A stretch of DNA of 28,756 nucleotides from Lachnospiraceae bacterium (GCA_016280395.1 JAEEGQ010000162.1:1-28756), one strand, 5' to 3'; positions 1,235 to 26,958 are shown, numbered from the stretch's first letter. The notes: generated from the sequence alone by a model not told the origin. Translations and numbers: made by a program.

Positions 1235-3334
1235 ATGGAAAAAAAGACTGTACCGGAGCTGTTCGGATCAAAAGTGTTTGATGACAGGGTAATGAAGGCA
1301 AGACTAAACGACAAGGTATACAACTCACTGAAAAAGACTATAGATGAAAATGCCGATCTTGATGAAAAGGTGGCAGAGGCTGTAGCAAAGGAAATGAAGG
1401 CGTGGGCTGTAGAGAACGGTGCCACACATTTTACCCACTGGTTCCAGCCGCTTACCGGCATTACCGCTGAAAAGCACGACAGCTTCATCTCACCTTCACC
1501 CGACGGCGGTGTGATAATGGAGTTTTCAGGCAAGGAACTCATAAAAGGCGAGCCTGATGCATCTTCCTTCCCTTCGGGCGGTCTTCGCGCAACATTCGAG
1601 GCAAGAGGCTATACGGCCTGGGATCCTACATCCTACGCATTTATCAAGGATCATACCCTTTGCATACCGACAGCGTTCTGCTCTTACGGCGGTGACGCTC
1701 TTGATAAAAAGACACCGCTCCTGCGTTCGATGCAGGCCCTTGACAAGCAGGCAAAGAGGATTCTTAAGCTGTTCGGCAAGGAAGTAAAATATGTCCGCAC
1801 AAGTGTCGGTCCCGAGCAGGAGTATTTCCTTATCGACGAGAAGATGTATGAACAGAGGCCGGACCTTAAATATACGGGCCGCACGCTTTTCGGGGCCATG
1901 CCTCCAAAGGGCCAGGAGCTTGACGATCATTACTTTGGAGCCATCAAGCCGAGAGTAACGGCATTTATGGAAGAGCTGAACGAAGAGCTCTGGAAGCTTG
2001 GGATACTTGCAAAAACGGAGCATAACGAGGTCGCTCCGGCGCAGCATGAGCTTGCACCGATCTTCTCAACCACAAACGTTGCCACGGACAAGAACCAGCT
2101 TACCATGGAGATAATGCAGAAGGTTGCAAGAAAGCACGGAATGGTATGCCTGCTCCATGAGAAACCTTTTGCAGGTGTTAACGGTTCCGGTAAGCACAAC
2201 AACTGGTCCATGGCCACAAACGAAGGCGTAAACCTTTTGTCACCGGGCGAGACTCCTCATGAAAATGCACAGTTCCTGCTTTTCCTTTGTGCGGTCATCA
2301 AGGCCGTTGACGATTATCAGGATCTGCTGAGGCTTTCGGTTGCCACGGCCGGAAACGACCACAGGCTCGGAGCAAACGAGGCACCGCCCGCCATCATATC
2401 CATGTTCCTTGGCGATGAGCTGACAGCCATCCTCGACGCTATCAAGAACGATACCCCTTATGTGGGCAAAGAAAAGGAAGTACTGAAGCTTGGAGTACAT
2501 GTCCTGCCAAGATTCTCACGGGATACCACCGACAGGAACAGGACATCGCCTTTTGCTTTCACCGGGAATAAATTTGAGTTCAGATCCCTCGGTTCATCAA
2601 ACAGCATCGCCTGCTGCAACATCATGCTCAATGCTGCCGTTGCGGAAAGCCTTAAGATCTTTGCCGAAAGGCTCGAAGGCGCAAAGAACTTTGATGATGA
2701 GCTCCACGCCCTGATAAAGGAGACCATAAGAGATCATGAGAGGATACTCTTTAACGGCAACGGTTACACGGATGCCTGGGTAAAGGAAGCCACCGAAGTG
2801 AGGGGCCTTTCCAACTACAAGACGACTCCCGACGCAATGCCGCATCTTCTCGACAAGAAGAACATGGACATGCTCATGGCCCACAAGGTGTTCACTGAAA
2901 CCGAGCTTAAATCCAGATGCGAGATCATGCTCGAGAACTATTGCAAGACAGTGAGCATTGAAGCGCACACCATGGTGGATATGGTAAGAAAGAGCTATCT
3001 GCCGGCCATTGAAGGCTACCTTTACAACCTTGCAAAGACCACGTCTCTTATGAAGTCGGTAAGCAGCAATGTCAAATGCAATTACGAGATATCAACGATG
3101 GAACGCCTTTCGGAGCTTACGGATTACATCCTTGAGCGCGTAAAGGATCTCGAAAAGGCGCTTGAGGAGCTTAAGAGCTTTGACAGTGTTCTAAAGACGT
3201 CAGAGTTTATCAGGGACGATCTTATCCCGAAGATGGAACATTTAAGGAAACATGTAGATGAGGCAGAGATGCTTTCGAGCGAGGAATGCTGGCCGTTCCC
3301 GAGCTACGGTAAATTACTTTTCAGTGTTTATTAA
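1235..3334 (+). CDS. glnN: Glutamine synthetase type III (GSIII).
   Basis: 699 aa is typical GSIII size. The N-terminus has the form ...[15 protein letters not shown]..., characteristic of Bacteroides and Ruminococcus GSIII. The RBS is AAGGAG at 1220-1225. Confidence 0.85.
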
Positions 3335-3348
3335 AACGTGATACAAAG

Positions 3349-3390
3349 TCATCCCACAACGGCGTGGAACTGTTGCGGGGTGGCTTCTTT
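3349..3390 (+). terminator. Intrinsic terminator or attenuator between glnN and amt.
   Basis: A stem of about 12 bp (tcatcccacaac paired with gttgcggggtgg, one mismatch and two G-U pairs) is followed by cttcTTTTTT. A nested small hairpin ccac-AACGGC-gtgg lies at 3354-3367. The RBS AGGAGG follows directly. Confidence 0.5.
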
Positions 3391-3407
3391 TTTAGGAGGA
3401 TAAAGTT

Positions 3408-5189
3408 ATGACAGAAGAGATCATGAAGTTATTTGAAGGCCTTGACGGCGAGATTTTTGCGGTGTGGTTCCTTATCGGAGCGGCCCTGGTGTTCTGGATG
3501 CAGGCCGGCTTTGCGATGTGCGAAGCGGGTTTTACAAGGGCAAAGAACTCCGGAAACATCATTATGAAAAACCTTATGGATTTCTGTATCGGTACCGTGA
3601 TGTGGTTTATCTGCGGCGCTTCGCTGATGCTCGGGAAAAACGTTCTCGGCGGCTTTTCCGGCAGCATAAACTTTGATGTTTTCACCAAATACGGTGATTT
3701 CGATTATTCCATGTTTGTATTCAACCTTGTGTTCTGCGCAACGACAGCTACAATAGTTTCGGGTTCCATGGCTGAGAGGACGAAATTTTCAAGCTATTGC
3801 GTCTATTCTGCAGTGATCTCGGCTGTTATCTATCCGATCGAGGCACACTGGACCTGGGGCGGCGGATTCCTTGCCGACTGGGGATTCCACGATTATGCGG
3901 GGTCCAACTGTATCCACATGGTAGGCGGTATCTGTGCATTTATCGGCGCATGGATGCTTGGACCGCGCATCGGCAAGTTTGAGCGCGACAGCAAAGGCAA
4001 AGTAACAAAAGTAAACGCATTTCCCGGTCACAACCTTGTGATCGCGGCTCTGGGCGTGTTCATCCTGTGGCTCGGCTGGTACGGCTTCAACGGTGCTGCC
4101 GCAACGGATGTTGCTACACTCGGTTCCGTTTTCCTTACAACAACCGTTGCTCCTGCCGTTGCCACTGTTGTCTGTATGATATTTACCTGGGTAAAATACG
4201 GAAAACCCGATGTTTCCATGTGCCTCAACGCCTCACTTGCAGGTCTTGTCGCGATCACCGCGCCATGTGACGTGACGGATTGCGCAGGCTCAGCGATCAT
4301 CGGTGCCGTAGCCGGACTCCTCGTGGTCTTCGGTGTCTGGTTCAACGACAATGTAACCCATGTGGATGACCCCGTTGGTGCCGTTGCGGTACATATGCTC
4401 AACGGTATCTGGGGTACGGTTGCTGTAGGTCTCTTTGCTACGGACACAGCTCCGGGATTTGCGCTTGCGGGGATTGAAAAAGGCCTTTTCTACGGAGGCG
4501 GTGTAAAGCAGCTCGGACTGCAGTTTGCCGGCATGGGTATCACTGCGGCATGGACCGTTGTTACCATTCTTATCGCATTCTTCATCATCAAAAAGACTAT
4601 CGGGCTCAGGGTATCCGAAGAAGAGGAGATCACGGGTCTTGACGCTACGGAACACGGGCTTCCTTCAGCTTACGCAGGCTTTTCGATCATGGATATTTCC
4701 AACACCATGACCATGAGCGTAAACGAAAATACAAACCTCGGAACGGATTCTTACGCCGACGCATCGAAGGCACAGAAGATGGCAGCGGTACCTGTCGTAA
4801 GAGCGGATGAGGGGATACCGAAAGACTTCTCCACAGGCATGTCAAAGGTTGTCATCATCGCAAAGCTTTCAAGATATGAAGTCTTAAAACGTGCCATGAA
4901 CGATCTTGGTGTAACAGGCATGACCGTTACCCAGGTTATGGGCTGCGGCGTCCAGAAAGGCGCCGGTGAGAAATACCGCGGAGTTGAGATCGACGCAACG
5001 CTGCTTCCGAAAGTCAAACTTGAAGTGGTTGTCAGCGAGATCCCTGTGGACGCTGTTATTGAAGCCGCCAAGAAGGCACTTTATACCGGACACATCGGCG
5101 ATGGCAAGATATTCGTATACCCTGTCAGCAGAGTCGTTAAGATCCGCACGGGTGAAGAGAATGCCGCCGCTCTGCAGGATGTGGAATGA
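3408..5189 (+). CDS. amt: Ammonium transporter (Amt/MEP family) fused in frame to a C-terminal P-II (GlnB/GlnK-type) nitrogen regulatory domain.
   Basis: The N-terminal about 440 aa are a polytopic membrane protein of Amt type. The last about 115 aa (MSKVVIIAKL...GVQKGAGEKYRGVEIDATLLPKVKLEVVV...GDGKIFV) are a canonical P-II fold with a T-loop Tyr. There is no stop or internal RBS between the two domains. Confidence 0.85.
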   Translation: MTEEIMKLFEGLDGEIFAVWFLIGAALVFWMQAGFAMCEAGFTRAKNSGNIIMKNLMDFCIGTVMWFICGASLMLGKNVLGGFSGSINFDVFTKYGDFDYSMFVFNLVFCATTATIVSGSMAERTKFSSYCVYSAVISAVIYPIEAHWTWGGGFLADWGFHDYAGSNCIHMVGGICAFIGAWMLGPRIGKFERDSKGKVTKVNAFPGHNLVIAALGVFILWLGWYGFNGAAATDVATLGSVFLTTTVAPAVATVVCMIFTWVKYGKPDVSMCLNASLAGLVAITAPCDVTDCAGSAIIGAVAGLLVVFGVWFNDNVTHVDDPVGAVAVHMLNGIWGTVAVGLFATDTAPGFALAGIEKGLFYGGGVKQLGLQFAGMGITAAWTVVTILIAFFIIKKTIGLRVSEEEEITGLDATEHGLPSAYAGFSIMDISNTMTMSVNENTNLGTDSYADASKAQKMAAVPVVRADEGIPKDFSTGMSKVVIIAKLSRYEVLKRAMNDLGVTGMTVTQVMGCGVQKGAGEKYRGVEIDATLLPKVKLEVVVSEIPVDAVIEAAKKALYTGHIGDGKIFVYPVSRVVKIRTGEENAAALQDVE

Positions 5190-5203: not shown

Positions 5204-5232
5204 TTGACATTCTGTTGCGATAGAGCTATCAT
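5204..5232 (+). promoter_or_regulatory. Sigma-A type promoter for gltBD.
   Basis: TTGACA lies at 5204-5209, a 17-nt spacer follows, and TATCAT lies at 5227-5232. An inverted repeat AACAGAA (5189-5195) and TTCTGTT (5210-5216) flanks the -35 box. Confidence 0.5.
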
Positions 5233-5240
5233 CACAGAAT

Positions 5241-5323
5241 AAAGGCAAAGGCGTCTTGGATGAGTCCAAGGCGCCCTTTTTTTAGGCAAAGGCGCCACGT
5301 TTGGTCGTGGTGTCTCTTTTTTT
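5241..5323 (+). promoter_or_regulatory. gltB leader with three AAAGGC hexamers and two tandem intrinsic-terminator hairpins. It is a candidate transcription-attenuation leader.
   Basis: AAAGGC occurs at 5241, 5247 and 5288. Terminator 1 is ggcgtcttgg-atgagt-ccaaggcgcc followed by T7 (5250-5283). Terminator 2 is gcgccacg-tttggt-cgtggtgt followed by ctcT7 (5292-5323). The gltB RBS GGAGG is at 5342-5346. Confidence 0.55.
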
Positions 5324-5352
5324 AGGATATCTGAGTCGTATGGAGGTAAGTG

Positions 5353-8300
5353 ATGTCGGGACTTTTTAAAACCATTGCGGAAAAAGGGCTGTATTCGGAC
5401 AGCTTTGAACATGATAACTGCGGTATCGGAGCCATCATAGATATTGAGGGCAGGGCCAGCCACGGCATAGTCTGCGATGCGTTATCCATAGTTGAAAACC
5501 TTGAACACAGGGCCGGGAAGGATGCAGACGGTAAGGTGGGGGACGGCGTCGGAATCCTGACCCAGATCCCTCACAGATTCTTTGTAAAGAAGCTCGCCGA
5601 ACAGGGGGTGACACTCGGCGGACCGCGCTCCTACGGTGTCGGCATGTTCTTTTTCCCTGCAAAGGACCTTGATATGCGCCAGGCAAGGTCTTTGTTTGAG
5701 ATCATAACAGGGAAGGCGGGCCTTAAGATACTTGCATGGCGGAAGGTGGATTCCGCGCCGGAAGTGCTCGGTGAAAAAGCAAGGAACTGTATGCCGGGGA
5801 TCTGTCAGGTGTTTATAGAACGTCCTTCACGTGCCAAGACCGATCTTGATTTTGACCGTATGCTCTACGTGATAAGACGCGAATTTGAACAGAGCTGTGT
5901 AAATACCTATGTTCCTTCGCTTTCCTGCAGAACGATAGTGTACAAGGGCATGTTCCTTGTGGGACAGCTGCGGTCTTTTTACAGGGACCTTGAGGATGAG
6001 GACTATGAGTCCGCTATAGCCATGGTCCACTCACGCTTCTCAACAAATACCGAACCAAGCTGGAACCGTGCGCATCCTAACCGCCTTCTTGTGCATAACG
6101 GCGAGATAAATACCATAAAGGGCAATGCCGACAAGATGCTCGCGAGGGAAGAGACCATGCATACCGCGGCCTTCAGCGATGAGGATATGACAAAGGTGCT
6201 TCCTGTGATACACATGAGCGGTTCGGATTCCGCAATGCTTGACAACACCCTTGAATTCCTGCTCATGAGCGGTCTTGATCTTCCGCTTGCGGCTATGATA
6301 CTTGTCCCGGAACCCTGGTCGCACAACGAAACGCTTTCAGCGGAGGAACGGGACTTTTACCAGTATTACGCGACCATGATGGAGCCCTGGGACGGACCGG
6401 CATCGATCCTTTTCTCCGACGGCGACTCCATGGGTGCGATCCTTGACCGCAACGGTCTTAGACCTTCAAGGTATCTTGTGACGGACGACGGCAGGCTTAT
6501 CCTGTCCTCCGAGGCGGGTGTACTGCCTGTGGACGAAAAGCATATCATCAAAAAAGAACGCCTTCATCCGGGTAAGATCCTTCTTGCGGACACTAAAACA
6601 AAGCGGATATATTACGACGAAGAATTAAAGGAAAAGTATGCCCTGTCAAGCCCTTACGGCGAGTGGCTTGACAGCAATCTTCTTGCCTTAAGGGAGCTTA
6701 AGATACCTAACAAAAAAGTGACTGAGCTTTCCGGAGACTACAGAAAAAAACTTCAGAAGGCATTCGGCTATACCTGGGAGGATTACCGCGACGGAATACG
6801 CAGCATGGCGCTCACGGGGGCCGAACAGATAGGCTCGATGGGCGTGGATACGCCGCTTGCTGTGCTGTCTGACAGTTACCAGCCGCTGTTTTATTATTTT
6901 AAGCAGCAGTTTGCCCAGGTGACAAATCCGCCGATAGATGCACAGCGTGAAGAAATAGTTACCTCAAGGACGGTCTATCTTGGGAAAAACGGAAACCTGC
7001 TTCAGGAAAAGCCCGAAAACTGCCATGTATTAAAGATCAACAATCCGATCCTCACGGATCTCGATCTCCTTAAGATCGAAAACATGAAGCATGAGGGCTT
7101 TACGGTCGCAAAGATTTCGACTCTCTTTTATAAGAGCACGCCCATGAAACGTGTGCTCAAGCAGCTTTTCATAGAGGTTGACAAGGCCTACAGGAACGGC
7201 GCGAATATCCTGATCCTTTCGGACCGGGGCATGGACGAGAACCATGTTGCGATCCCCTCGCTCCTTGCGGTTGCCGCCGTTCACAGACATCTTGTTGATA
7301 CAAGAAAATGCACTGCCATGTCGCTGATCCTTGAATCAGGCGAACCAAGGCAGGTACACCATTTCGCAACTCTCCTCGGATACGGCGCTTCGGCGGTAAA
7401 TCCGTATCTTGCGCATGCCTCGATAATGGAGCTTATCGAGGACGGCCTTCTTGACAAGGATTATTATGCCGCAGTGCAGGATTACGATAATGCGATCCTG
7501 TTCGGGATAGTAAAGATCGCTTCAAAGATGGGCATTTCCACGATACAGTCCTATCAGGGCAGCAAGATGTTTGAAGCCGTGGGGATATCATCTGAAGTGA
7601 CTGACGAGTATTTTACAGGCACTGTAAGCCGTATCGGCGGCATCACCCTGGATGATATCGGAAGAGCGACCGACGAACAGCACAGCAGGGCCTTCGATCC
7701 CCTTGGACTTGCGGCAGACACGGAGCTTAAGGCTTTTGGACGACACAAGGAGAGGAGCGGGGGCGAAAGCCACAGATATAACCCGGAGACCATACATGCG
7801 CTCCAGGCAGCAACACGTGAAGGTGATTATGCGAAATTCAAACAATACACAAAGCTTGCAGATACCGAAAAAACGGGATATTTAAGGTCTCTTCTGGATC
7901 TTGTGCCGGAAGGCCCGGAAGTGCCGCTTGAAGAAGTTGAGCCGGAAGAGGAGATAGTAAAAAGGTTCAAGACCGGTGCCATGTCTTACGGTTCCATATC
8001 GCAGGAAGCTCACGAAACGCTTGCTGTCGCAATGAACCGCCTGCACGGAAAGTCCAACAGCGGTGAAGGCGGTGAAAGTGACGAAAGACTTAGTACCGGG
8101 GAATACGAAAATGAGAAAAATTCCGCTATAAAGCAGGTTGCGAGCGGACGTTTCGGTGTTACCGGGAAATATCTTGTAAGCGCAAAGGAACTCCAGATCA
8201 AGATGGCGCAGGGCGCAAAGCCCGGTGAAGGCGGTCATCTGCCGGGAAAGAAGGTGTACCCGTGGATAGCAAAGACAAGGCACTCCACACCCGGTGTGAG

Positions 8301-9906
8301 CCTTATCTCTCCGCCGCCTCATCATGATATTTATTCCATAGAGGATCTGGCACAGCTTATCTATGATCTGAAAAATGCGAATAAAAACGCAAGGATCTCG
8401 GTAAAACTCGTATCCGAGGCAGGAGTCGGGACTGTGGCCGCAGGTGTTGCAAAGGCCGGAGCTGGAGTTATCCTCATCTCGGGATATGATGGCGGAACCG
8501 GAGCGGCGCCGCTCTCATCCATACATAATGCCGGACTCCCGTGGGAAATGGGTCTTGCCGAGACACACCAGACGCTTGTTGCAAACGGTCTCAGGAACCG
8601 TGTCGTTATCGAGACGGACGGAAAGCTCATGACCGGCAGGGATGTGGCTATAGCTGCAATCCTCGGAGCGGAGGAGTTCGGTTTTGCAACGGCACCGCTT
8701 GTAACAATGGGCTGTGTGATGATGCGTGTATGCCAGTCGGATACATGTCCTATGGGCATAGCCACCCAGAATCCGGAATTAAGAAAGCGCTTCAGGGGTA
8801 AGCCCGAATATGTGGAAAACTTCATGCGCTTTATCGCAAGGGAATTAAGAGAGATCATGGCCAAACTGGGCGTTAGGAGCATCAATGAGCTGGTTGGGCG
8901 CACAGATCTCCTGAAGGTAAAGGATTCTGCAGGAAACGCAGCTAAGCTGAACCTTTCAAGGATACTTCCTTCCATCGGGGGATTACACGGCAGCAAGGCC
9001 ATATTCGATCCTTCAAGAAGCTTTGATTTCAAGCTTGACAAGACGCCTGATGAAAGTGTGCTCCTTGCTTCAAAGGCGGTCAGAAAGTCGCTTGAAAAAG
9101 GCGAAAAAAGCAGTATCAGGATAAATGTGAAGAATACAGACAGGACCTTCGGAACGCTCCTTGGCGCGGAAATAACAAGGCGGTATCCGGACGGACTTGA
9201 AACGGACACGATAACGGTGGATTGTCTGGGTGCCGGAGGACAGAGCTTTGGCGCGTTCATTCCAAAGGGGTTAAGGCTCGATCTTACCGGTGAGAGCAAC
9301 GATTATTTCGGGAAAGGGCTTTCGGGCGGTACTCTTGTTGTTAAAGCGCCAAAGGAAGCAAAGTACGATCCGTCAAAGAACATCATCATAGGCAATGTCG
9401 CACTGTACGGGGCAACATCCGGAAAGGCTTTTGTGGCGGGAATGGCTGGCGAGCGTTTCGCAATAAGGAATTCCGGCGCAAGGGCTGTTGTCGAAGGTGT
9501 CGGAGAGCACGGCTGCGAATATATGACAGGCGGCTGCGTTGTTATCCTCGGACCGACCGGAAAGAATTTTGCGGCCGGTATGAGCGGCGGGGTAGCATAT
9601 GTTCTTGACGAAGAAAATAAGCTCTATAAAAACCTGAACAAGCAGCTTGTTACCATGGAGAATGTGGAAAACAGGAATGACAGGGAGGAATTAAAGAAGC
9701 TTATCGAGGAGCATGTCGCATCCACAGGTTCCGCTAAGGGTAAAGCGATCCTTGAAGCTTTTGACTCTTATGTTGACCACTTCAAAAAGATAATCCCCAC
9801 GGATTACAAGGAAATGCTCAGGCTTATACTTATGAACGAGGAAAACGGGCTTGACGGTGAAACGGCAAAGATCGAGGCATTTAAGACTTTCGTCGGAGGT
9901 GTGTGA
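5353..9906 (+). CDS. gltB: Glutamate synthase large subunit.
   Basis: The protein is about 1517 aa. It has an N-terminal Ntn amidotransferase Cys, FMN and Fe-S central and C-terminal domains, and a G-rich C-terminal repeat region. The start ATG at 5353 lies 6 nt after GGAGG. Confidence 0.92.
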   Translation: MSGLFKTIAEKGLYSDSFEHDNCGIGAIIDIEGRASHGIVCDALSIVENLEHRAGKDADGKVGDGVGILTQIPHRFFVKKLAEQGVTLGGPRSYGVGMFFFPAKDLDMRQARSLFEIITGKAGLKILAWRKVDSAPEVLGEKARNCMPGICQVFIERPSRAKTDLDFDRMLYVIRREFEQSCVNTYVPSLSCRTIVYKGMFLVGQLRSFYRDLEDEDYESAIAMVHSRFSTNTEPSWNRAHPNRLLVHNGEINTIKGNADKMLAREETMHTAAFSDEDMTKVLPVIHMSGSDSAMLDNTLEFLLMSGLDLPLAAMILVPEPWSHNETLSAEERDFYQYYATMMEPWDGPASILFSDGDSMGAILDRNGLRPSRYLVTDDGRLILSSEAGVLPVDEKHIIKKERLHPGKILLADTKTKRIYYDEELKEKYALSSPYGEWLDSNLLALRELKIPNKKVTELSGDYRKKLQKAFGYTWEDYRDGIRSMALTGAEQIGSMGVDTPLAVLSDSYQPLFYYFKQQFAQVTNPPIDAQREEIVTSRTVYLGKNGNLLQEKPENCHVLKINNPILTDLDLLKIENMKHEGFTVAKISTLFYKSTPMKRVLKQLFIEVDKAYRNGANILILSDRGMDENHVAIPSLLAVAAVHRHLVDTRKCTAMSLILESGEPRQVHHFATLLGYGASAVNPYLAHASIMELIEDGLLDKDYYAAVQDYDNAILFGIVKIASKMGISTIQSYQGSKMFEAVGISSEVTDEYFTGTVSRIGGITLDDIGRATDEQHSRAFDPLGLAADTELKAFGRHKERSGGESHRYNPETIHALQAATREGDYAKFKQYTKLADTEKTGYLRSLLDLVPEGPEVPLEEVEPEEEIVKRFKTGAMSYGSISQEAHETLAVAMNRLHGKSNSGEGGESDERLSTGEYENEKNSAIKQVASGRFGVTGKYLVSAKELQIKMAQGAKPGEGGHLPGKKVYPWIAKTRHSTPGVSLISPPPHHDIYSIEDLAQLIYDLKNANKNARISVKLVSEAGVGTVAAGVAKAGAGVILISGYDGGTGAAPLSSIHNAGLPWEMGLAETHQTLVANGLRNRVVIETDGKLMTGRDVAIAAILGAEEFGFATAPLVTMGCVMMRVCQSDTCPMGIATQNPELRKRFRGKPEYVENFMRFIARELREIMAKLGVRSINELVGRTDLLKVKDSAGNAAKLNLSRILPSIGGLHGSKAIFDPSRSFDFKLDKTPDESVLLASKAVRKSLEKGEKSSIRINVKNTDRTFGTLLGAEITRRYPDGLETDTITVDCLGAGGQSFGAFIPKGLRLDLTGESNDYFGKGLSGGTLVVKAPKEAKYDPSKNIIIGNVALYGATSGKAFVAGMAGERFAIRNSGARAVVEGVGEHGCEYMTGGCVVILGPTGKNFAAGMSGGVAYVLDEENKLYKNLNKQLVTMENVENRNDREELKKLIEEHVASTGSAKGKAILEAFDSYVDHFKKIIPTDYKEMLRLILMNEENGLDGETAKIEAFKTFVGGV

Positions 9907-11393
9907 TGGGAAAGACAACAGGTTTTCTCGAGTATGACAGAGTGCAGGGAGAGGTAAGACCTGCAAAAGAACGTATAAAGGATTTTAAGGAATTTCATGG
10001 GAAGCTGTCCTTCGAGGAGCAGAGAAAACAGGCGGCAAGATGCATGGACTGCGGCGTGCCCTACTGCCAGGCCGGGAAGATGATAGCGGGGATGGCCTCC
10101 GGATGCCCGCTGCAAAATCTTGTGCCTGAGACAAATGATCTTGTGTATCTCGGAAAGCTTGAAAAAGCTTATGAAAGACTCAGTATTACACACCCGTTCC
10201 CGGAGTTTACGAGCAGGGTGTGCCCGGCTCTTTGTGAAGCGGCCTGCACCTGCGGCGTGAACGGGGAGCCCGTGTCCACAAAGGAAAACGAAAAGACGAT
10301 AATCGAATATGCCTTTGAGCACGGGCTTACAAAAGAGGCGCCGCCTGCAGTAAGGACAGGGAAAAGGGTGGCTGTTGTGGGCAGCGGGCCGGCAGGGCTT
10401 TCTGCAGCCCAGACACTGAACCGCAGGGGACACGAAGTGACTGTCTACGAAAGAAAGGACAGGATCGGAGGTCTCTTAAGGTATGGAATCCCGAATATGA
10501 AACTTGACAAGTCTGTGATCGACAGACGCGTAAAACTGATGGAGGAGGCCGGCGTCCGTTTTATATGTAATGCGGATGTCGGAAAAGACACTGCCGTTTC
10601 CGAATTACTCGACACATACGACAGCGTCATTCTGGCATGCGGAGCATCGAATCCGAGAAATATCGATGCTCCGGGCCGTGACGCGAAGGGGATACGGTTT
10701 GCGGTGGATTTCCTTTCCGAAGTCACAAAAAAGCTTCTTGATTCGGATTTTAAGGATGTGCCGTATGAGCTTGCAAAGGGAAAGGATGTTGTCGTTATAG
10801 GCGGCGGAGATACGGGGAATGACTGTGTTGGAACCTGTATCAGGCTTGGAGCGAAGAGCGTAAAGCAGATTGAGATGATGCCAAAGCCTCCGGCAGAGAG
10901 GACCGCTTCAAACCCGTGGCCCGAGTGGCCGAAGGTCTTAAAGACAGATTACGGCCAGGAGGAGGCAATAGAGGTTTTTGGCTCCGATCCGCGCATTTAC
11001 AAGACCACGGTCAGCGAATTTGTTAAGGATAAAAAGGGAGCGCTTAAGGAACTGGTGCTGATCTCACTTGAACCGCACCGGGATGAAAAGACGGGGCGGA
11101 CAGTGATGAAGCCGGTTGAAGGCAGCGAGACCAGGATACCGGCGCAGCTTGTTCTCATAGCGGCAGGGTTCCTTGGGAGCGAGGCTTATGTTACCGAAGG
11201 GTTCGGCGTGGAAGTTGACGGGAGGACCAATGTTTCGACAAAACCCGGCAGCTATGCGTCATCACGGGAAAAAGTCTATACGGCGGGAGATATGCACAGA
11301 GGACAGTCTCTTGTTGTCTGGGCCATTGCTGAGGGCAGAAGATGTGCCCGTGAGGTGGACCGTGATCTGATGGGATACAGCAATATCGATTAA
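9906..11393 (+). CDS. gltD: Glutamate synthase small (NADPH-dependent) subunit.
   Basis: The protein has an Fe-S cysteine cluster (CMDCGVPYCQ) and the FAD/NAD dinucleotide motif VAVVGSGPAGLSAA. Its ATG overlaps the gltB TGA (TGATG), which indicates translational coupling. GGAGG lies 7 nt upstream. Confidence 0.9.
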   Translation: MGKTTGFLEYDRVQGEVRPAKERIKDFKEFHGKLSFEEQRKQAARCMDCGVPYCQAGKMIAGMASGCPLQNLVPETNDLVYLGKLEKAYERLSITHPFPEFTSRVCPALCEAACTCGVNGEPVSTKENEKTIIEYAFEHGLTKEAPPAVRTGKRVAVVGSGPAGLSAAQTLNRRGHEVTVYERKDRIGGLLRYGIPNMKLDKSVIDRRVKLMEEAGVRFICNADVGKDTAVSELLDTYDSVILACGASNPRNIDAPGRDAKGIRFAVDFLSEVTKKLLDSDFKDVPYELAKGKDVVVIGGGDTGNDCVGTCIRLGAKSVKQIEMMPKPPAERTASNPWPEWPKVLKTDYGQEEAIEVFGSDPRIYKTTVSEFVKDKKGALKELVLISLEPHRDEKTGRTVMKPVEGSETRIPAQLVLIAAGFLGSEAYVTEGFGVEVDGRTNVSTKPGSYASSREKVYTAGDMHRGQSLVVWAIAEGRRCAREVDRDLMGYSNID

Positions 11394-20660: not shown

Positions 20661-20705
20661 GGTCTTGTTAAGCTAATGAATAGCTTAGCAAGGCCTTTTC
20701 TTTTT
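20661..20705. terminator. Bidirectional intrinsic terminator between guaA (+) and the XRE regulator gene (-).
   Basis: A 14-bp stem (ggtcttgttaagct paired with agcttagcaaggcc, two mismatches) has a T-run on both strands (plus ttttcttttt, minus tttttt). Confidence 0.55.
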
Positions 20706-20743
20706 GCCCATATGTTAGCCGGTTGAAACCATTTATAGGCGAT

Positions 20744-21244
20744 TTAGTCAAATAAATCCTGTGGAGGAACTTTTGCAAAGTGCGTATGAGTTGTCTGACC
20801 GACAGTTGGATAGTGATATCTCCAAGCATCATATTCATCCTGGGTGATCTGACCGGATCTGAGTGCTTCGGACTTATCCATCCAATCCATCAGCATGTCA
20901 TAAAACAGCATGCTGTCAGGGTGATTCCTTAAATCAAGATAAAGCTGTGGCTGTCCGTCTTCTGCCTTTTCAATCTTGAGACCGTAGCGATCTTCAATAG
21001 CGAAGAGGGTATGAATAAGCCCTGTGAAAGAATCGATATTGGGAACCTTCAGGGCATCGGGTTTAACGTCAAAAAGCTCAGCCATAGCCTGAACAAGATT
21101 ATCCTTTGGAACACGGTTTTCGCTCTCATATTGAGCCATACGGACATCGGCAGATTTTTCATCAAAGCCGATCTGAGTACCTACATATTTTTGTGTCATT
21201 CTGCGTTTACTACGGAAGAAATGGATTCGTTCTCCTATTGCCAT
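20744..21244 (-). CDS. XRE-family helix-turn-helix transcriptional regulator with a C-terminal domain of about 100 aa and unknown function.
   Basis: The N-terminus MAIGERIHFFRSKRRMTQKYVGTQIG... is a typical HTH_3. The RBS AAAGGAG lies 8 nt upstream of the ATG at 21244. The ORF-track start at 21412 is an extension. Confidence 0.6.
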   Translation of the reverse strand: MAIGERIHFFRSKRRMTQKYVGTQIGFDEKSADVRMAQYESENRVPKDNLVQAMAELFDVKPDALKVPNIDSFTGLIHTLFAIEDRYGLKIEKAEDGQPQLYLDLRNHPDSMLFYDMLMDWMDKSEALRSGQITQDEYDAWRYHYPTVGQTTHTHFAKVPPQDLFD

Positions 21245-21502
21245 AGTGAGGGCTCCTTTCGCTTGATTGAACGGAAATATAACAGATTTCTTCGAAATTC
21301 TGATATCTTTAGGAAATTTAGAGAATGGTGGTTTAAGTTTCGTGGACTTGAGAAAACAAAAACTAGTATTTACGAGCGACTTAAGGAAGCGCAAAAGCTT
21401 GCAGATGAGCATAATGCGCAGTGTAAGAGTTAGCTTAAGAAAAAAAGGAACATGGATTGGAGAGATAGAGAATACAAAACACCGGAACTAAATATCATAG
21501 AA

Positions 21503-21540
21503 AGCAAAGGCTAGTACCAATATTGGGAATAGCCTTTGCT
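21503..21540. repeat. Perfect 11-bp inverted repeat with a nested palindrome. It is either an orphan terminator-like hairpin or a protein-binding site.
   Basis: agcaaaggcta (21503-21513) pairs with tagcctttgct (21530-21540). The loop contains the palindrome ccaatattgg. tattttct follows. Confidence 0.5.
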
Positions 21541-21707
21541 TATTTTCTAGGAAATTTTTTGGATTTTGTGGTTCATATTAGGGATGTACCAAAACATCAT
21601 AATACTTGTAAATTATAAATATAATAAGACCATGTGTTGTAATTACAGAATCATATGATATACTTTCAATAGAGTTTGAAAATGAAAAGAATTCGGAGGG
21701 GGTTATA

Positions 21708-22688
21708 ATGGCTTTTTGCAAATATTGTGGAGAAAAAATAGAGAATAATGCTAAGTTTTGTTCTTCTTGTGGTAAAGCAATAGAACCAAATGAAAAAGAT
21801 ACAAATCAAAAAACTCGAGAAGAAAAAATGAAGAAAAATAAATGTCCAAATTGCGGAGAAATAATGGACGCATTTGAAGTAAAGTGTCCTTCTTGCGGCT
21901 TCGAAATAAGAGATATTGATGCAGCAGAGTCAATAAGAAATTTATCAAAAATAACACAAGAAATTGAAAATACAAGAGAAAATGCTAATCCAATTATTTC
22001 AATGTTTACAGATGGGTTAGTGGTTGGAAAAACTGATTCAAAGATTGTTAGTGTAATTCAAAATACTCCGATCCCTAATACAGTTGAGGATATTGTAGAA
22101 TTTATGATTATAGCATCATCTAATATTAATCCGGCTGCATACGCTAATTTAGGAGTAACTTCGTATGGTGTTGCATCACAGGGTGAAAAGGCGAAATCTA
22201 GAGCTTGGGAGTCCAAATTAAACCAAGCCTATAATAAAGCTAAATTATCCTTTAAAGATGAGGAGCAGTTTGAACAAATACAAAGGATTTATGACGAAAC
22301 ACATGATAAAATCCGTCAAGCGCAAAAAGAATCTAAAAAAGCATATAGTCACATAATGCGAAGCTCACTTTTTATGTTAGTTTTGATGTTTGCGTTTTTG
22401 ATTATACTTGCTGTTGTTTTGAGTATAAGAGATGAAAAAATGATTGATAATGGTGCAATTTGCCCAAGCTACAGTTCGCGTGAATTTAAAGGAATGCAAT
22501 ATGAAGATGTAACAAATATATTAGAAAAGGATGGTTTTACTAATATAGTAACAAAAGGTAGTAAAGGAACTATCATGGATGGATTAGATTCCGGAGAAGT
22601 AATAAAGGTAACTATAGACGGTACTTATTGCACAAAGGGGTCATATGAGGAACCTGATGCGCCAGTTTTAATTGAGTATAAAAAATAG
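21708..22688 (+). CDS. Double zinc-ribbon, single-pass membrane protein with a small C-terminal extracytoplasmic alpha/beta domain (PASTA-like by eye).
   Basis: Two CxxC...CxxC pairs are present (CKYCG...CSSCG and CPNCG...CPSCG). There is one hydrophobic helix (LFMLVLMFAFLIILAVVL). GGAGG is at 21695-21699. The promoter is probably TTGTAA with extended -10 TGATATACT at about 21636-21671. Confidence 0.7.
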   Translation: MAFCKYCGEKIENNAKFCSSCGKAIEPNEKDTNQKTREEKMKKNKCPNCGEIMDAFEVKCPSCGFEIRDIDAAESIRNLSKITQEIENTRENANPIISMFTDGLVVGKTDSKIVSVIQNTPIPNTVEDIVEFMIIASSNINPAAYANLGVTSYGVASQGEKAKSRAWESKLNQAYNKAKLSFKDEEQFEQIQRIYDETHDKIRQAQKESKKAYSHIMRSSLFMLVLMFAFLIILAVVLSIRDEKMIDNGAICPSYSSREFKGMQYEDVTNILEKDGFTNIVTKGSKGTIMDGLDSGEVIKVTIDGTYCTKGSYEEPDAPVLIEYKK

Positions 22689-22943
22689 TGTATTTGGGCA
22701 TGTTCATTGGATTAGGGATGTTAAGTTATTTGATGCTTCTGATAAGTGTTTGTGGTTTATAAGCTTACAGTTATGCTGATATATGGAATGTGTGATGAAC
22801 CAAATGTGAGATGAAATTGATAAATATCCGCAAAAAGTTGCGAATATTTTATGAATTCATGCGAAAAATATTGAATTACTCAAGTGATATGCATAACATT
22901 ATTCTAAATGTATTTTGATTTATTCAATGTAAGGAAGAAAGTG

Positions 22944-23153
22944 ATGGGAATAAGTTACAAAAAAATATGGTTGTTACTAATTGAAAAAGATATTTCTCCA
23001 GCAACATTAAGAAAAGATTTAAATATCGCAACGGGGACAATGACTAAACTACGAAAGAATGAAGAGGTTGCATTGTCTGGATTACTTCGGATATGTAGCT
23101 ATCTGGAATGTAATATAGGTGATATTTGTGATGCTATACCTATAGCTGATTAA
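22944..23153 (+). CDS. Small Cro/C1-type (XRE) HTH DNA-binding protein.
   Basis: The sequence ...ISPATLRKDLNIATGTMTKLRKNEEV... is typical of HTH_26 proteins of about 70 aa. AAGGAAG lies upstream. The ATG at 22944 is preferred over the ORF-track start at 22908. Confidence 0.65.
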   Translation: MGISYKKIWLLLIEKDISPATLRKDLNIATGTMTKLRKNEEVALSGLLRICSYLECNIGDICDAIPIAD

Positions 23154-23193
23154 CTTTAATAGATACTTAATATGTATTTTCGGAGGTATTTTT

Positions 23194-24567
23194 ATGGGCT
23201 TATTTGGAAAAAAGAAAACAAGAGGGTTTATGGATGTCATAAGATGTGATGAGCCTTCATATCTTGTCTGGAAATGGCATCCCGTGGGTTGCCAAGAAGG
23301 AAAAAATAAACGAGAAAATGAAATAAGATGGGGTTCTTCTTTACGTGTAAAAGATGGTGAGGTTGCTGTTTTTGTTTATAAGCAGAAGGATGGAACTGTA
23401 CAGGATTTTATAGAAGGTCCTTTTGATGAAACAATAAAGACAAAAAATCTTCCAGTCCTAATAAATCTAATGGGGGCGTTATATGATGGAAGTTCTCCAT
23501 TTCAAGCTGAAATTTATTTTATTAATCTGGCAAAGATTATACAAGTTAAATTTGGTGTGCCTTATTTTGACGTGTATGATCCTAGATTCTCAGATTTTGG
23601 TGTCCCAGTAGCTGTTCGTGGAACAATAAGTTTTCAAATCAAGGATTATAGAGAGTTTATAAAATTACATAGATTAGGTACATTTAGATTAGAAGATTTC
23701 CAAAATCAAATAAGAGATGTAGTTGTTAGATATGTGAAGGATACTGTAACGAATATTCCAGCTGCAAATGATATCCCGCTAATTCAAATAGAAACAAAAA
23801 CTTCGTTAATAAATGATTCTGTTGAGTTAGATATAAAGGAACGATTACAAGAAGATTTTGGAGTAATAGTTTCAGGAGTTGATATTGGAGCAATAGAAAT
23901 TGATAAATCTAGCGAAGGATATATTAAATTATTATCAGTTACTAGAGATGTTGATAGTGCAATAATATCTGCTCAAAAGGAAGCTAACGTAAAGAACATC
24001 CATGATATGCAACGTATTAATGTTGAAAATTATGAGGAAAGTCTGAGAGTACAGCGTGAAGAAGGGCAATACTCAATGCATAAGGGAACACAGTCTCAGA
24101 ATTTTGCAGCTTATCAAGTTGAAGCTCAAACACAGGTAGGGGTTGCAGGTGCTGAAGCACTAGGTCATATGGGTGAAAATGGAGCTGGCAATATTAGCCT
24201 AGGTGATGGAGGGGGAACTGGATTGAATCCAGCGTCCATGATGGCAGCTATGGCTGTTGGAGGAGCTGTTGGACAAAACCTAGCAGGTACTATGAACAAT
24301 ATGTTAGGAAATGCTCCACAACCATCTAATGGTATTGCTCCGCCACCACTACCAAAAGAATCATTCTTTGTGGCCGTCGCTGGTAAACAGGAAGGACCTT
24401 TTACATTAGATGTACTTTTACAGATGAAAAACAGTGGGACATTTACTTCAGAACAACTAGTATGGCAAGCTGGTATGGAAAATTGGACAAAAGCATCTGA
24501 GGTACAAGCCTTGAAGAGTATGTTCGATATTGATAAAGGAATAACTCCACCACCTATTCCGCAATAA
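23194..24567 (+). CDS. SPFH/band-7 family protein with a low-complexity Gly/Ala linker and a C-terminal GYF-like (DUF4339-type) domain.
   Basis: The N-terminus MGLFGKKKTRGFMDVIRCDEPSYLVWKWHP resembles COG4260 / B. subtilis YdjI-like SPFH proteins (recalled from memory). The C-terminal FFVAVAGKQEGPFTLDVLLQMKNSGTFTSEQLVWQAGMENWTKASEV has the W..G..W GYF-like signature. GGAGG lies upstream. Confidence 0.75.
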   Translation: MGLFGKKKTRGFMDVIRCDEPSYLVWKWHPVGCQEGKNKRENEIRWGSSLRVKDGEVAVFVYKQKDGTVQDFIEGPFDETIKTKNLPVLINLMGALYDGSSPFQAEIYFINLAKIIQVKFGVPYFDVYDPRFSDFGVPVAVRGTISFQIKDYREFIKLHRLGTFRLEDFQNQIRDVVVRYVKDTVTNIPAANDIPLIQIETKTSLINDSVELDIKERLQEDFGVIVSGVDIGAIEIDKSSEGYIKLLSVTRDVDSAIISAQKEANVKNIHDMQRINVENYEESLRVQREEGQYSMHKGTQSQNFAAYQVEAQTQVGVAGAEALGHMGENGAGNISLGDGGGTGLNPASMMAAMAVGGAVGQNLAGTMNNMLGNAPQPSNGIAPPPLPKESFFVAVAGKQEGPFTLDVLLQMKNSGTFTSEQLVWQAGMENWTKASEVQALKSMFDIDKGITPPPIPQ

Positions 24568-24685
24568 ATCTATGATTTTATATTGATTCTAAAATATCTA
24601 AAAACAGAATATTAGAATCAAAAACAGTGAGAAAATTTATAAAAAATGCATATTTACCACTATTCGCAATGGTATAAATCATTAC

Positions 24686-24822
24686 TAAGAATCGTGTGGG
24701 TTGTAGAACAGTAGGTTTTGGTCGTGTTGCTACAATCATCGAGTAATAACGAGCGAACAGCCCAACCCAAATAGTAAAATCAAGGCTTCCGAGGAATTCC
24801 TCGAGAGCCTTTTTTTATCTTT
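24686..24822 (+). ncRNA. Candidate small RNA of about 130 nt with its own promoter and terminator.
   Basis: An extended -10 TGgTATAAA lies at 24670-24678. A 7-bp closing stem (tgggttg 24697-24703 paired with caaccca 24763-24769) encloses an internal 10-bp hairpin (24701-24735). A strong terminator follows at 24784-24816. No ORF is present. Confidence 0.3.
24784..24816 (+). terminator. Intrinsic terminator.
   Basis: An 11-bp stem (ggcttccgagg paired with cctcgagagcc, one mismatch) has loop AATT, followed by T7. Confidence 0.6.
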
Positions 24823-24872
24823 TATAATATAGTATTAGTGTAAAAAAATTCGTAATGATTCTAATTTAATTC

Positions 24873-24907
24873 TATTTATATAAATAATGACTTTTCACAT
24901 ATAGTGA
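24873..24907 (-). terminator. Perfect 15-bp stem hairpin, the probable terminator of the minus-strand two-gene operon.
   Basis: ataatgacttttcac pairs with gtgaaaagtcattat around loop atata. It lies 14 nt downstream of the 24921 stop on the minus strand. Confidence 0.55.
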
Positions 24908-24920
24908 AAAGTCATTATAA

Positions 24921-25121
24921 TTACCATTTCTTTATTTGTTTTATATCTTCTGCTCGTTGTGGATCGTGATGATATTGTAGTTTCAATTTTACTGTTTCAA
25001 CTATCTCGCTACGAGCTACATCATCTAATTGATAAAAGGATGTTAGTAAATTGTCTACATCTGGCATAGCATTTTTCCATAAAGCATCATAAGAGGTTGA
25101 ATAGAATACTGCAGATATCAT
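24921..25121 (-). CDS. Hypothetical small protein (66 aa), translationally coupled to the upstream HTH gene.
   Basis: An ATGA start/stop overlap lies at 25118-25121. Confidence 0.5.
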   Translation of the reverse strand: MISAVFYSTSYDALWKNAMPDVDNLLTSFYQLDDVARSEIVETVKLKLQYHHDPQRAEDIKQIKKW

Positions 25122-25345
25122 TTTACTCTTGAAGAATCTAACATATCTTTCTTATCATGGAATGTCATGTAAATTTCATCCTCTTTTAATTCACCAGAAA
25201 AAGGAATAGCTGAACATATCTCATTAACATCTATCTCTAATTCATTAGCAATTCGTAAGGCGTAGTCAAATCTTATATTTGTTTCTTTTTGAATAATTGA
25301 ATATAAAGTAGATGCGCTTATACCTGAGGCTTTTGCAACCGGCAT
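25118..25345 (-). CDS. XRE-type HTH regulator. Its N-terminal helix appears to be encoded in another frame (25321-25398), so the gene is possibly frameshifted.
   Basis: The sequence ...KASGISASTLYSIIQKETNIRFDYALRIANELEIDVNEI is an HTH helix 2-3 plus tail. The alternative frame from the ATG at 25398 gives MGDEKRLNEIIDAKGTNI (a helix-1-like peptide) and stops after 26 codons. Confidence 0.5.
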   Translation of the reverse strand: MPVAKASGISASTLYSIIQKETNIRFDYALRIANELEIDVNEICSAIPFSGELKEDEIYMTFHDKKDMLDSSRVK

Positions 25346-25436
25346 ATATTTGTGCCTTTAGCGTCTATTATTTCATTTAATCTTTTCTCATCACCCATAC
25401 ATACAATCTCACTTCTTGATTTATTGAATTAATCAT

Positions 25437-25560
25437 AACATATTTACGAAAAACATAAAGTGAAAAAATACAAAAAATAAAAATAATTTATGAAATTCGT
25501 AAAAATAGTACTTACAAAAATAATAGCAAATGATATATTGAATTTACGAAGTTCGTAAAT
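25437..25560. promoter_or_regulatory. Divergent promoter region with repeated TTTACGAA/TTCGTAAA half-sites, including a perfect 19-bp palindrome. These are candidate operators.
   Basis: ATTTACGAA is at 25443-25451. TTCGTAAAAA is at 25496-25505. The palindrome ATTTACGAAgTTCGTAAAT is at 25542-25560, 35 nt upstream of the 25595 start. Confidence 0.5.
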
Positions 25561-25594
25561 CTAGAAATTATGTACATAGTAAAAGGAGATAAAT

Positions 25595-25972
25595 ATGAAA
25601 TCACATTACATAAGAGATTCAATGATAGCCGATTTGATTCAGCAAGGATATGCAAGAAAAGCTGAATATGGAGTTGGATGGGACACAGTGGATATTAATG
25701 ATGTTGTATCTGTTGTTGCCCCTGGTGCAAAACCAGTTGTGGTTGGGGGTAAGATAATTTACTATAGTGCTGACGGAACTAAGGCAGTTGTCGCTGATGT
25801 TAGTGGATATTTGCGAGTACAAGATTTAACTAAAAAAACCAGAAAACGACAGTACTTAGACCAATTTGGTGACGACGCATATAATGTAGTTGAGAGCAAC
25901 GGAAAAAAACGAGGTAGAAGTAAGTCGGAGTTTCAGAAGGCGACTCATTATATGATTAAAAAGAGAATGTGA
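25595..25972 (+). CDS. Hypothetical basic protein (125 aa).
   Basis: The RBS AAAGGAG lies 7 nt upstream. The C-terminus is Lys/Arg-rich (KKRGRSKSEFQKATHYMIKKRM). I recognise no motif. Confidence 0.6.
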   Translation: MKSHYIRDSMIADLIQQGYARKAEYGVGWDTVDINDVVSVVAPGAKPVVVGGKIIYYSADGTKAVVADVSGYLRVQDLTKKTRKRQYLDQFGDDAYNVVESNGKKRGRSKSEFQKATHYMIKKRM

Positions 25973-25981
25973 GGTGAGTAA

Positions 25982-26341
25982 ATGTTTGTATATTATATGA
26001 ATGTTCCATTAAATAAAATAGGGATAGAAGAATTTGAAGGTTATGATGAAGAAATGTCAAATGTTAAGACATTTGAACTTACTCAAGAGGAGTATGATAT
26101 TTTAAGACAACCTAAAGGCTTATTTCAAGAGTTTGACGAAAGATTCGGAACAATAATTGATGTCTGCGAAGAAGAGCGAATCGTTAATGAAAATTTGAAG
26201 GAGGCATTACAGTCTGCTAATAAAATGTTAAATAAGCAAAAAAATGACATTGCAGAAAAAGCTATTAAAAAAGTTATAGACTCTTTGGAATGTGCTATCC
26301 AGGCGGGAACTTTTTGGGAAATAGATATTTATTTGGAGTAA
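25982..26341 (+). CDS. Hypothetical acidic protein (119 aa).
   Basis: The RBS is GAGGTGAG. The gene starts 10 nt after the preceding stop. The protein is very Glu/Asp-rich. Confidence 0.55.
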   Translation: MFVYYMNVPLNKIGIEEFEGYDEEMSNVKTFELTQEEYDILRQPKGLFQEFDERFGTIIDVCEEERIVNENLKEALQSANKMLNKQKNDIAEKAIKKVIDSLECAIQAGTFWEIDIYLE

Positions 26342-26345
26342 TGCC

Positions 26346-26708: not shown

Positions 26709-26719
26709 ACGATATAGTT

Positions 26720-26752
26720 ATAGTATCACGATGATACGCCTCGTGATACTAT
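26720..26752. repeat. Perfect 12-bp inverted repeat with TGATACG direct repeats.
   Basis: atagtatcacga (26720-26731) pairs with tcgtgatactat (26741-26752). TGATACG occurs at 26732-26738 and 26754-26760. Confidence 0.5.
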
Positions 26753-26787
26753 TATGATACGATTTCTTCGAAAAGCACAAAAAATAC

Positions 26788-26828: not shown

Positions 26829-26958
26829 TCGCGTTTGTTGTTGCAATATGGTTGAAAAAAGTACTGGTGGAGTACTGTTTGATGAAAATTCAAACCACAC
26901 ATTGCGTGTTCACACACTGAGTGATATAATAAAGAAAACGCAATGCGAGGAGGATGTT

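Follow-up and report, generated by a model that had tools for sequence, protein, structure and literature searches.

Positions 3408-5189 (+) of a 28,756-nucleotide contig from a Lachnospiraceae bacterium (GCA_016280395.1, JAEEGQ010000162.1:1-28756; the whole stretch of DNA analysed, hereafter the window) encode one protein in which an Amt ammonium channel is followed by a P-II signalling protein. We found that this open reading frame (ORF) is a genuine, vertically maintained fusion of an Amt channel with its own P-II regulator on a flexible cytoplasmic tether. On balance, the best explanation of the protein is a tethered autoinhibitory plug on an ammonium uptake channel, which would probably form a 3:3 trimer, be gated by ligands and be expressed behind an ANTAR-type leader. 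This explanation is the best supported because all switch residues are conserved and the site of covalent modification is absent. The Amt-P-II architecture is already in public databases with both Pfam domains assigned, yet it is uncharacterised, and it is ordinary within its clade. The notable parts are the secondary features, namely a conserved linker, an N1/N2 signature, relatives with degenerate pores, and a shared attenuator regulon.

The ORF begins with ATG, 8 nt downstream of a Shine-Dalgarno sequence AGGAGG (3394-3399, +), and runs for 593 codons plus a stop with no in-frame stop. A first-pass annotation, made from the DNA alone, had described one uninterrupted 593-codon frame with an Amt membrane domain and a complete P-II domain, and both descriptions were borne out, since the two Pfam profiles were matched end to end. 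Ammonium_transp (PF00909) was assigned to residues 19-418 (E 4e-117; 391.7 bits, cut-off 23.2; profile positions 1-396 of 399) and P-II (PF00543) to residues 478-583 (E 6e-24; 84.7 bits, cut-off 25; profile positions 1-102 of 102). The Amt/AmtB-type channel domain (residues 19-418; 3462-4661, +) was also recognised by NCBIfam, by alignment to E. coli AmtB (2NS1_A), in the AlphaFold2 (AF2) model and by Foldseek. Its end overlaps a conserved cytoplasmic C-terminal Amt region on the same strand, placed by alignment to 2NS1_A (residues 396-424, ...IGLRVSEEEEITGLDATEHGLPSAYAG; 4593-4679), which is followed by an inter-domain linker of 53 amino acids (aa) delimited by its lengths and conservation in relatives and by the predicted local distance difference test (pLDDT) (residues 425-477; 4680-4838). 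The P-II domain of GlnB/GlnK type (residues 478-589, corresponding to GlnK residues 1-112; 4839-5174, +) was defined by PF00543 and by gapless GlnK alignments. The latter also placed its T-loop at residues 514-532 (GlnK 37-55; 4947-5003, +), with Gln39, Tyr46, Arg47 and Ile at position 51. Four further residues, QDVE (5175-5186, +), extend past the usual P-II end and were recognised by their conservation in 81 species. The linker had been put at about 40 aa; it is actually about 53 aa when counted from the last residue of the conserved Amt C-terminal region, or about 59 aa when measured between the Pfam boundaries. The fusion protein scored 406.9 bits against the NCBIfam family TIGR00836 'amt' (cut-off 343.3). 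It missed the cut-offs of the E. coli-type AmtB equivalog NF007947 (187.4 bits vs 657) and of the proteobacterial GlnB/GlnK equivalogs NF008111 and NF007946 (104.7 vs 202 and 103.1 vs 181). Because these equivalog cut-offs were missed and Tyr51 is absent, the protein is, as judged from its sequence, a member of the Amt and P-II families and not an equivalog of E. coli AmtB, GlnB or GlnK.

The first-pass annotation had left the choice between a genuine fusion lineage and an artefact, and had asked whether orthologues are fused too. The comparisons favoured the former. The same 593-aa sequence recurred, without a single difference, on two other contigs that come from different projects (a JGI metagenome and an NCBI metagenome-assembled genome, MAG); there too the fused gene follows a glutamine synthetase gene. 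Database listings comprised the 120 nearest proteins and 120 more from a profile search, 240 matches in total, and every listed match carried both Pfam domains in a single chain of about 580-600 aa. The 120 best listed proteins (85-100% identity) all combined PF00909 with PF00543 in one chain of about 590-603 aa; they came from many independent assemblies in NCBI, ENA, JGI and Logan, mostly Lachnospiraceae MAGs. The 120 further matches listed by the profile search, likewise all fused, belonged to Acutalibacteraceae, Intestinimonas, Lachnospira and other Clostridia. For comparison at the DNA level we used 81 related species, that is, the window and the best 80 of at least 598 species-representative stretches encoding a relative. 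Each of these best 80 loci held one uninterrupted frame with both domain signatures, isolates included (Butyrivibrio sp. NC2007, YAB3001, AE3009 and FCS014, Oribacterium sp. WCC10, and Lachnospiraceae bacterium JC7 and AC3007). Further out, in a library of proteins clustered at 50% identity, matches of about 535-600 aa that aligned full-length in a single stretch were found down to 34% identity. A set of 19 diverse fused proteins comprised 18 distant representatives and the window protein; identities in the alignment of distant members (A1) were 31-57%. Distant fused members were named as Oscillospiraceae, Ca. Limiplasma, Synergistaceae and Trichococcus alkaliphilus.

The Amt half retains the residues of a canonical pore. 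Alignment to 2NS1_A showed that F107 and F215 (the Phe gate), W148, D160, and H168 and H318 (the twin-His pair) are present, and all six are invariant in 81 of 81 species; AmtB position 219 is Ala in place of Ser in every one of them. The cytoplasmic C-terminal region (…GLRVSEEEEITGLDATEHGLPSAY) was kept in the same alignment and has a mean consensus frequency of 0.83 over the 81 species (residues 396-424). In the E. coli complex this region of AmtB binds GlnK (PMC3831643, PMC10433425). The AF2 model, which is of a monomer, reached a mean pLDDT of 84 and a predicted template-modelling score (pTM) of 0.75; a shallower alignment had given a pLDDT of 65. It contained 11 long helices with pLDDT above 90, matching the known Amt topology of eleven helices with a cytoplasmic C-terminus (PMC10433425). 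The P-II fold was modelled with pLDDT 71-88, and its T-loop had low confidence, as expected of a flexible loop. In Foldseek, the sensor Amts 6EU6, 8QJ4 and 8QJ3 ranked first, followed by Af-Amt1 and E. coli AmtB; target TM-scores against 6EU6, 2B2F and 2NS1_A were 0.89-0.94. Among the matches to solved structures, no chain held both an Amt and a P-II domain.

The P-II half aligned without gaps over 112 residues to E. coli GlnK (2NS1_B) and to B. subtilis GlnK (4R25), the latter being the best P-II match among solved structures (E about 1e-31). The predicted ligands of ATP/ADP and Mg-2-oxoglutarate, G37, Q39, K58, G87, G89, K90 and R103, are all present, with Lys in place of R101. Across the 81 species G37, Y46, R47, G87, G89, K90 and R103 are invariant, and Q39 and K58 occur in 79; R47, Q39, K58 and K90 are unchanged in 19/19 of the diverse fused proteins. 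Arg524, the R47 equivalent, stands at the apex of the T-loop. The T-loop with a Tyr reported in the first pass is real, but in 'EKYRGVE' the Tyr corresponds to Tyr46 by E. coli numbering, not to the modification site. The 'GDGKIF' string given there as a separate C-terminal element is the B-loop motif itself (G87-K90). Position 51, the uridylylation site of proteobacterial P-II proteins, is Ile in the window protein and Met, Val, Leu or Ile in the 81 species, never Tyr. Position 38, Arg in E. coli GlnK, is Val in the window protein and Val or Ile across its relatives. The QDVE tail has a mean consensus frequency of 0.96 over the 81 species, and distant members end in an ALQD-like tail too.

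Among the 18 distant representatives the two halves of the fusion did not behave alike: 7 lacked at least one of the twin-His residues and 11 lacked Trp148, while the P-II residues were intact in all. A degenerate-pore set of fused proteins (P0126, P0133, P0143, P0154, P0174, P0175, P0180, P0185, P0199, P0209, P0227 and P0248; 31-49% identity; Oscillospiraceae, Ca. Limiplasma, Synergistaceae and others) has lost twin-His and/or Trp148 and Phe-gate residues. D160 and every T-loop and ligand residue of P-II are invariant in this set. The substitutions suggest that the Amt part of these lineages is no longer a canonical channel.

The linker is predicted to be disordered and is constrained in length. 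Ser and Ala occur most often in it (6 each), followed by Asp and Thr (5 each) and by Met and Asn (4 each), and residues 420-444 and 458-471 had AF2 pLDDT below 50. Linkers measured 45-65 aa (median 49) in the 81 species and 34-60 aa in the 18 distant fused proteins, giving a range of 34-65 aa over all fused proteins examined (the sets of 81 and 19, both of which include the window). Median identity to the window was 0.60 for the linker, 0.77 for the Amt domain and 0.81 for P-II. Within the clade the linker follows the motifs FSIMDxSNTMTMxxNENTxLG ... Y..AS...K.AAV.VV, with near-invariant positions F425, N439-E-N-T442, L444-G445 and A-A-V-x-V lying mainly in the N-terminal half; these clade motifs are absent from the distant fused members in alignment A1. 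Treated as a denatured chain, the linker would have its ends about 46-51 Å apart (root-mean-square) and a contour length of about 160-190 Å, a reach that by this model should suffice for both docked and undocked states. Judging from P-II fold topology, the P-II N-terminus would lie on the face opposite the T-loops, so that the linker would have to pass round the P-II body, about 50 Å, for the T-loops to reach the pore. A path of this length may be why no examined fused linker is shorter than 34 aa.

How such a protein could work is suggested by the unfused systems. As the first pass had stated, amtB and glnK are normally a separate, co-transcribed pair whose products form a 1:1 trimer-trimer complex; a published review confirms this and describes GlnK3 docked on AmtB3 with its T-loops filling the cytoplasmic vestibules (PMC10433425). 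The residue that enters the pore exit is Arg47, at the apex of the T-loop, and MgATP with 2-oxoglutarate, the Mg being ligated by Q39, widens the R47 triangle from 31 to 46 Å and blocks insertion (PMC3198391). By analogy, three tethered P-II domains would build the usual P-II trimer below the Amt trimer, 3:3 as in AmtB-GlnK. Under nitrogen sufficiency, with low 2-oxoglutarate and ADP-bound P-II, the T-loops would be extended and Arg524 would plug each cytoplasmic pore exit. Under nitrogen limitation MgATP and 2-oxoglutarate would occupy the Gln39/Lys58/Gly87-Lys90/Arg103 site, and the ligand-bound T-loops would splay and be unable to insert, so that the channel would conduct with P-II still tethered. 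Because position 51 is not Tyr, this gating would proceed without covalent modification, in the manner of B. subtilis GlnK. The tether would fix a stoichiometry that is already 1:1 in the native complex and would raise the local concentration of the plug. The first-pass annotation had supposed that a covalent tether holds the regulator permanently at 1:1. Its stoichiometry stands, but a permanent block does not follow, because release in unfused systems is driven by ligand-dependent T-loop geometry (PMC3198391). Relief of gating in the fusion would need a change of the T-loop, not departure of P-II.

Compared with E. coli AmtB-GlnK (2NS1, 2NUU; glnK-amtB operon), the Lachnospiraceae protein shares both modules, the 1:1 stoichiometry, the pore residues, the Amt C-terminal region, an equally long T-loop with an Arg47 tip, and the ATP/2-oxoglutarate ligands. 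It differs in that the modules are covalently joined, Amt first and P-II second, by the linker of about 53 aa. Its P-II has Ile51, which excludes GlnD-type uridylylation, and carries the R38-to-Val and R101-to-Lys replacements. Its Amt has Ala for S219 and the N1/N2 signature, and lacks the N-terminal signal peptide-like extension of E. coli AmtB. B. subtilis NrgA (AmtB) and NrgB (GlnK; 4R25, 4RX6) resemble it in the Firmicutes-type pattern of Cys36, Ile51 and Tyr94 and in a P-II of the type regulated by ligands, not by covalent modification; they are two separate proteins, whereas the Lachnospiraceae protein adds the linker and the conserved QDVE tail. The closest solved Amt modules by sequence and fold are the sensor Amts Ks-Amt5 (6EU6) and Sd-Amt1 (8QJ3, 8QJ4), which likewise have an Amt core, a C-terminal cytoplasmic module on a flexible connection and the N1/N2 signature (PMC5764959, PMC11152129). 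Their fused module is a histidine kinase or a HAMP-GGDEF enzyme, in contrast to the non-enzymatic P-II here. Fusion of a trans-acting regulator to the C-terminus of a transporter is also seen in LacS, with its C-terminal IIA-Glc-like domain, and in CBS-domain transporters (PMC10710835), although these involve another transporter family, regulatory domain and signal.

The fused gene lies among genes of ammonium assimilation. The gene for glutamine synthetase type III (GS-III; 1235-3334, +; Pfam GSIII_N, Gln-synt_C and Gln-synt_C-ter) is directly upstream, preceded by asnB (69-1160, +; Pfam). Downstream are gltB (5350-9906) and gltD (9903-11393), assigned by Pfam to the large and small subunits of glutamate synthase (GOGAT) and together spanning 5350-11393 (+), so that the GS-GOGAT pathway of ammonium assimilation stands on either side of the fused gene. 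In roughly 25 of 80 related loci the gene immediately upstream on the same strand is GS-III, and the fused gene often has gltBD, asnB or pyrG nearby. On a larger scale, asnB, GS-III, amt-PII, gltB, gltD, pyrG, carA, carB, purA and guaA form about 20 kb of same-strand nitrogen-donor genes (69-20511, +). This 'nitrogen donor' supercluster is unusually long, and relatives (L083, L084) share parts of it.

The terminators in front of GS-III, amt-PII and gltB are strong (-16 to -25 kcal/mol, z -3.8 to -6.6), and the 5' arm of each overlaps a small hairpin with the hexaloop A-A-N-G-G/C-N. In the leader of the fused gene (3346-3393, +) a terminator-like stem at 3346-3386 (-23 kcal/mol, z = -4.1) is followed by a U-run at 3387-3393 abutting the ribosome-binding site (RBS). 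A hairpin at 3354-3367 (+; CCAC-AACGGC-GTGG, with an A1/G4 hexaloop) is mutually exclusive with this terminator and is a candidate antiterminator. The GS-III leader (1167-1208, +) has the hexaloop hairpin GAGAC-AAAGGC-GTCTC at 1167-1182, overlapping a terminator at 1172-1208 (-25 kcal/mol). The gltB leader, downstream of the fused gene (5204-5315, +), has a promoter-like TTGACA-17-TATCAT at 5204-5232 and then two hairpin/terminator units on the same strand (hairpins 5242-5257 and 5285-5296, with terminators 5250-5275 and 5290-5315, respectively). Sites combining such a hairpin with a T-run numbered 3 in the window against 0.37 ± 0.64 expected, and all 3 fell in the leaders of these three genes. 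Upstream of the orthologue the hexaloop-hairpin feature was found in 57 of 79 species, compared with 3.8 ± 1.7 after shuffling and 2 when the opposite strand was scanned; the hexaloop was most often AAAGGC. By definition the mini-hairpin of an ANTAR target has a stem of at least 3 bp, an A1/G4 hexaloop and an overlap with an intrinsic terminator, and genes for P-II, ammonium transporters and glutamate/glutamine synthases are reported to have such targets upstream (PMC3369931). The leaders of the fused gene, GS-III and gltB fit this definition by sequence and are candidate ANTAR antiterminator sites. As in the ANTAR nitrogen operons (EutV, NasR, AmiR), their mini-hairpins compete with an intrinsic terminator, but the canonical dual-hairpin layout (P1 plus P2) is not clearly present at every Lachnospiraceae site; in this comparison tandem hexaloop hairpins occurred only in the gltB leader. 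The window ORFs that were scanned included no ANTAR-domain gene, and Rfam gave nothing credible for the leaders at gathering or permissive thresholds. Under the tethered-plug explanation, a terminator/antiterminator leader of ANTAR-target type would stand before the fused gene, which would be expressed together with the genes of GS-III/GOGAT assimilation.

Several points weigh against a tethered plug. Several distant fused relatives lack the twin-His or Trp148 with P-II still intact, so that a canonical pore is not needed for the architecture to be retained. Conservation in the N-terminal half of the linker exceeds what a passive tether requires. The window protein matches the signature QX6EX15NX2D[F/T]X54-60TX2[S/T] (Q32, E39, N55, D58, F59, T115 and S118; residues 32-118; 3501-3761, +; found by pattern match), the N1/N2 signature proposed as a mark of ammonium receptors (Pflueger et al. 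2024; PMC11152129), and its best matches in both sequence and structure are the sensor Amts 6EU6, 8QJ3 and 8QJ4. Finally, our literature search found no experimental study of any natural Amt-P-II fusion or of its regulation; subscription reviews were thinly covered, so that a mention may exist. Marsh et al. 2013 listed AmtB-GlnK among complexes with genomic fusion evidence in STRING, and the reviews PMC10433425 and PMC10710835 do not mention the fusion.

The signature and the sensor-like matches favour an ammonium receptor or transceptor, in which the Amt part would mainly sense external ammonium at a lateral N1/N2 site, like Ks-Amt5 and Sd-Amt1, and signal by a conformational change through the linker to a P-II output. 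P-II would then merge external ammonium with internal 2-oxoglutarate/ATP/ADP status and act on other partners, beyond plugging its own channel. The signature occurs in 81/81 clade members, and Ks-Amt5 and Sd-Amt1 match it while E. coli AmtB and Af-Amt1 do not. The nearest relatives without P-II (44-51% identity) carry methyl-accepting chemotaxis protein (MCP), HAMP-MCP or PAS-SpoIIE outputs, and the distant degenerate-pore relatives with invariant P-II residues, together with the conserved linker motifs, point the same way. The signature alone is not discriminating, because 29.6% of Amt/Rh sequences have it, plant AMT1 proteins with proven transport among them (PMC11152129). Nor is there family-wide coupling of signature and fusion: of the P-II-fused representatives with a length of 400 aa or more, 3 had the signature and 26 did not. 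In this clade, moreover, no canonical pore residue varies, the gene sits within GS-III/GOGAT assimilation operons, and P-II has no catalytic output and keeps the pore-plugging Arg47 strictly conserved. Taken together, we judge a receptor unlikely, though it is the strongest competitor of the tethered plug. A bifunctional transceptor is a rather more doubtful proposal. Here N1/N2 occupancy would be relayed by the N-terminal linker half to the P-II trimer, with output for instance to a factor reading the shared hexaloop attenuators, and the degenerate-pore relatives would represent the pure-sensor end.

The fusion might also serve mainly to hold P-II at the membrane as a hub, sequestering or releasing nitrogen regulators or enzymes, with plugging secondary. 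In B. subtilis, GlnK (the closest solved P-II) brings TnrA to the membrane via AmtB, and the partners proposed here would be a TnrA/GlnR-type factor, GS-III, or an antiterminator acting on the leaders. No stand-alone P-II gene was found within ±6 kb of the fused gene in the 80 loci, and unless these genomes have one elsewhere, the fused P-II would be their only P-II; the QDVE tail and the linker motifs are conserved without an explained function. No partner was identified, however, and conservation of Arg47 and of the Amt C-terminal region most simply reflects self-plugging, which makes the hub improbable as the principal role.

We regard it as very improbable that two proteins are made after all, with free P-II arising from an internal start at Met478 or from linker proteolysis. 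The first P-II codon is ATG in the window, and the predicted-disordered linker would be protease-accessible. Codon 478 is ATG in 30/81 species including the window, but Ile (ATH) in 51/81, and a start codon with a Shine-Dalgarno-like 4-mer is found in only 5/81; internal initiation was rejected as a source of free P-II on this evidence. The window has no Shine-Dalgarno sequence at the right spacing before codon 478. The earlier statement that no internal RBS precedes the P-II Met held good, the sole purine-rich run, GAGGGG, lying more than 20 nt upstream of the codon. The narrow range of linker lengths and the linker conservation likewise point to a tether function.

That a frameshift or lost stop joined neighbouring amt and glnK genes is almost certainly wrong, because the same 593-aa protein stands on three contigs from different projects, 240/240 listed matches are fused and 80/80 loci single-frame, isolates included, a linker of about 50 aa with conserved sequence occupies the intergenic position, and nothing favours an artefact in this window beyond the fact that frameshifted fused copies do occur in metagenome-derived sets (P0124, P0129), where the errors destroy a fusion and do not create one. 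P0124 and P0129 had appeared as 'Amt-only' close relatives with long tails; they were rejected as such, the tails being out-of-frame junk rich in Arg, His, Gly and Pro.

AmtB-GlnK is the standard example of channel gating by a soluble signalling protein, and a natural single-chain form of it is common in rumen and gut Clostridia living on ammonia. Such a chain offers a stoichiometrically locked complex for cryo-electron microscopy and electrophysiology in defined nucleotide and 2-oxoglutarate states. If the tethered plug is correct, gating would require neither dissociation nor covalent modification. The receptor-type N1/N2 site in the Amt module bears on the long-running question of sensing versus transport in Amt proteins. 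Censuses of P-II proteins and of amtB-glnK pairs in gut and rumen genomes miscount the fusions, because they are mostly annotated just as 'ammonium transporter'. Database names of intact fused proteins do vary: besides 'ammonium transporter' we met 'P-II family nitrogen regulator' and even 'adenylate cyclase'.

Some minor observations concern relatives and the rest of the window. The closest Amt relatives without P-II (P0171, P0190, P0197, P0235 and P0188) are candidate ammonium chemoreceptors or sensors, and 3 of the 5 have the N1/N2 signature. In one related locus (L070) an extra P-II match at 10860-11135 was considered as a free P-II gene and rejected, being a truncated fragment of 91 aa. 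It lacks its N-terminal part, ends in a fusion-type ALQDVE about 3 kb downstream of the intact fused gene, and adjoins unrelated AT-rich ORFs; it is probably the remnant of a second fused copy. No tRNA genes were found in the window. At about 20700-27200 the GC content falls abruptly from about 50% to about 32%. Genes of this segment encode small helix-turn-helix proteins of Cro/C1 type, a double zinc-ribbon protein, a protein with SPFH/Band-7 plus GYF_2 domains, an ORF6N-domain protein, and three small ORFs without Pfam matches. The low-GC segment looks like a horizontally acquired island or the remnant of a mobile element.

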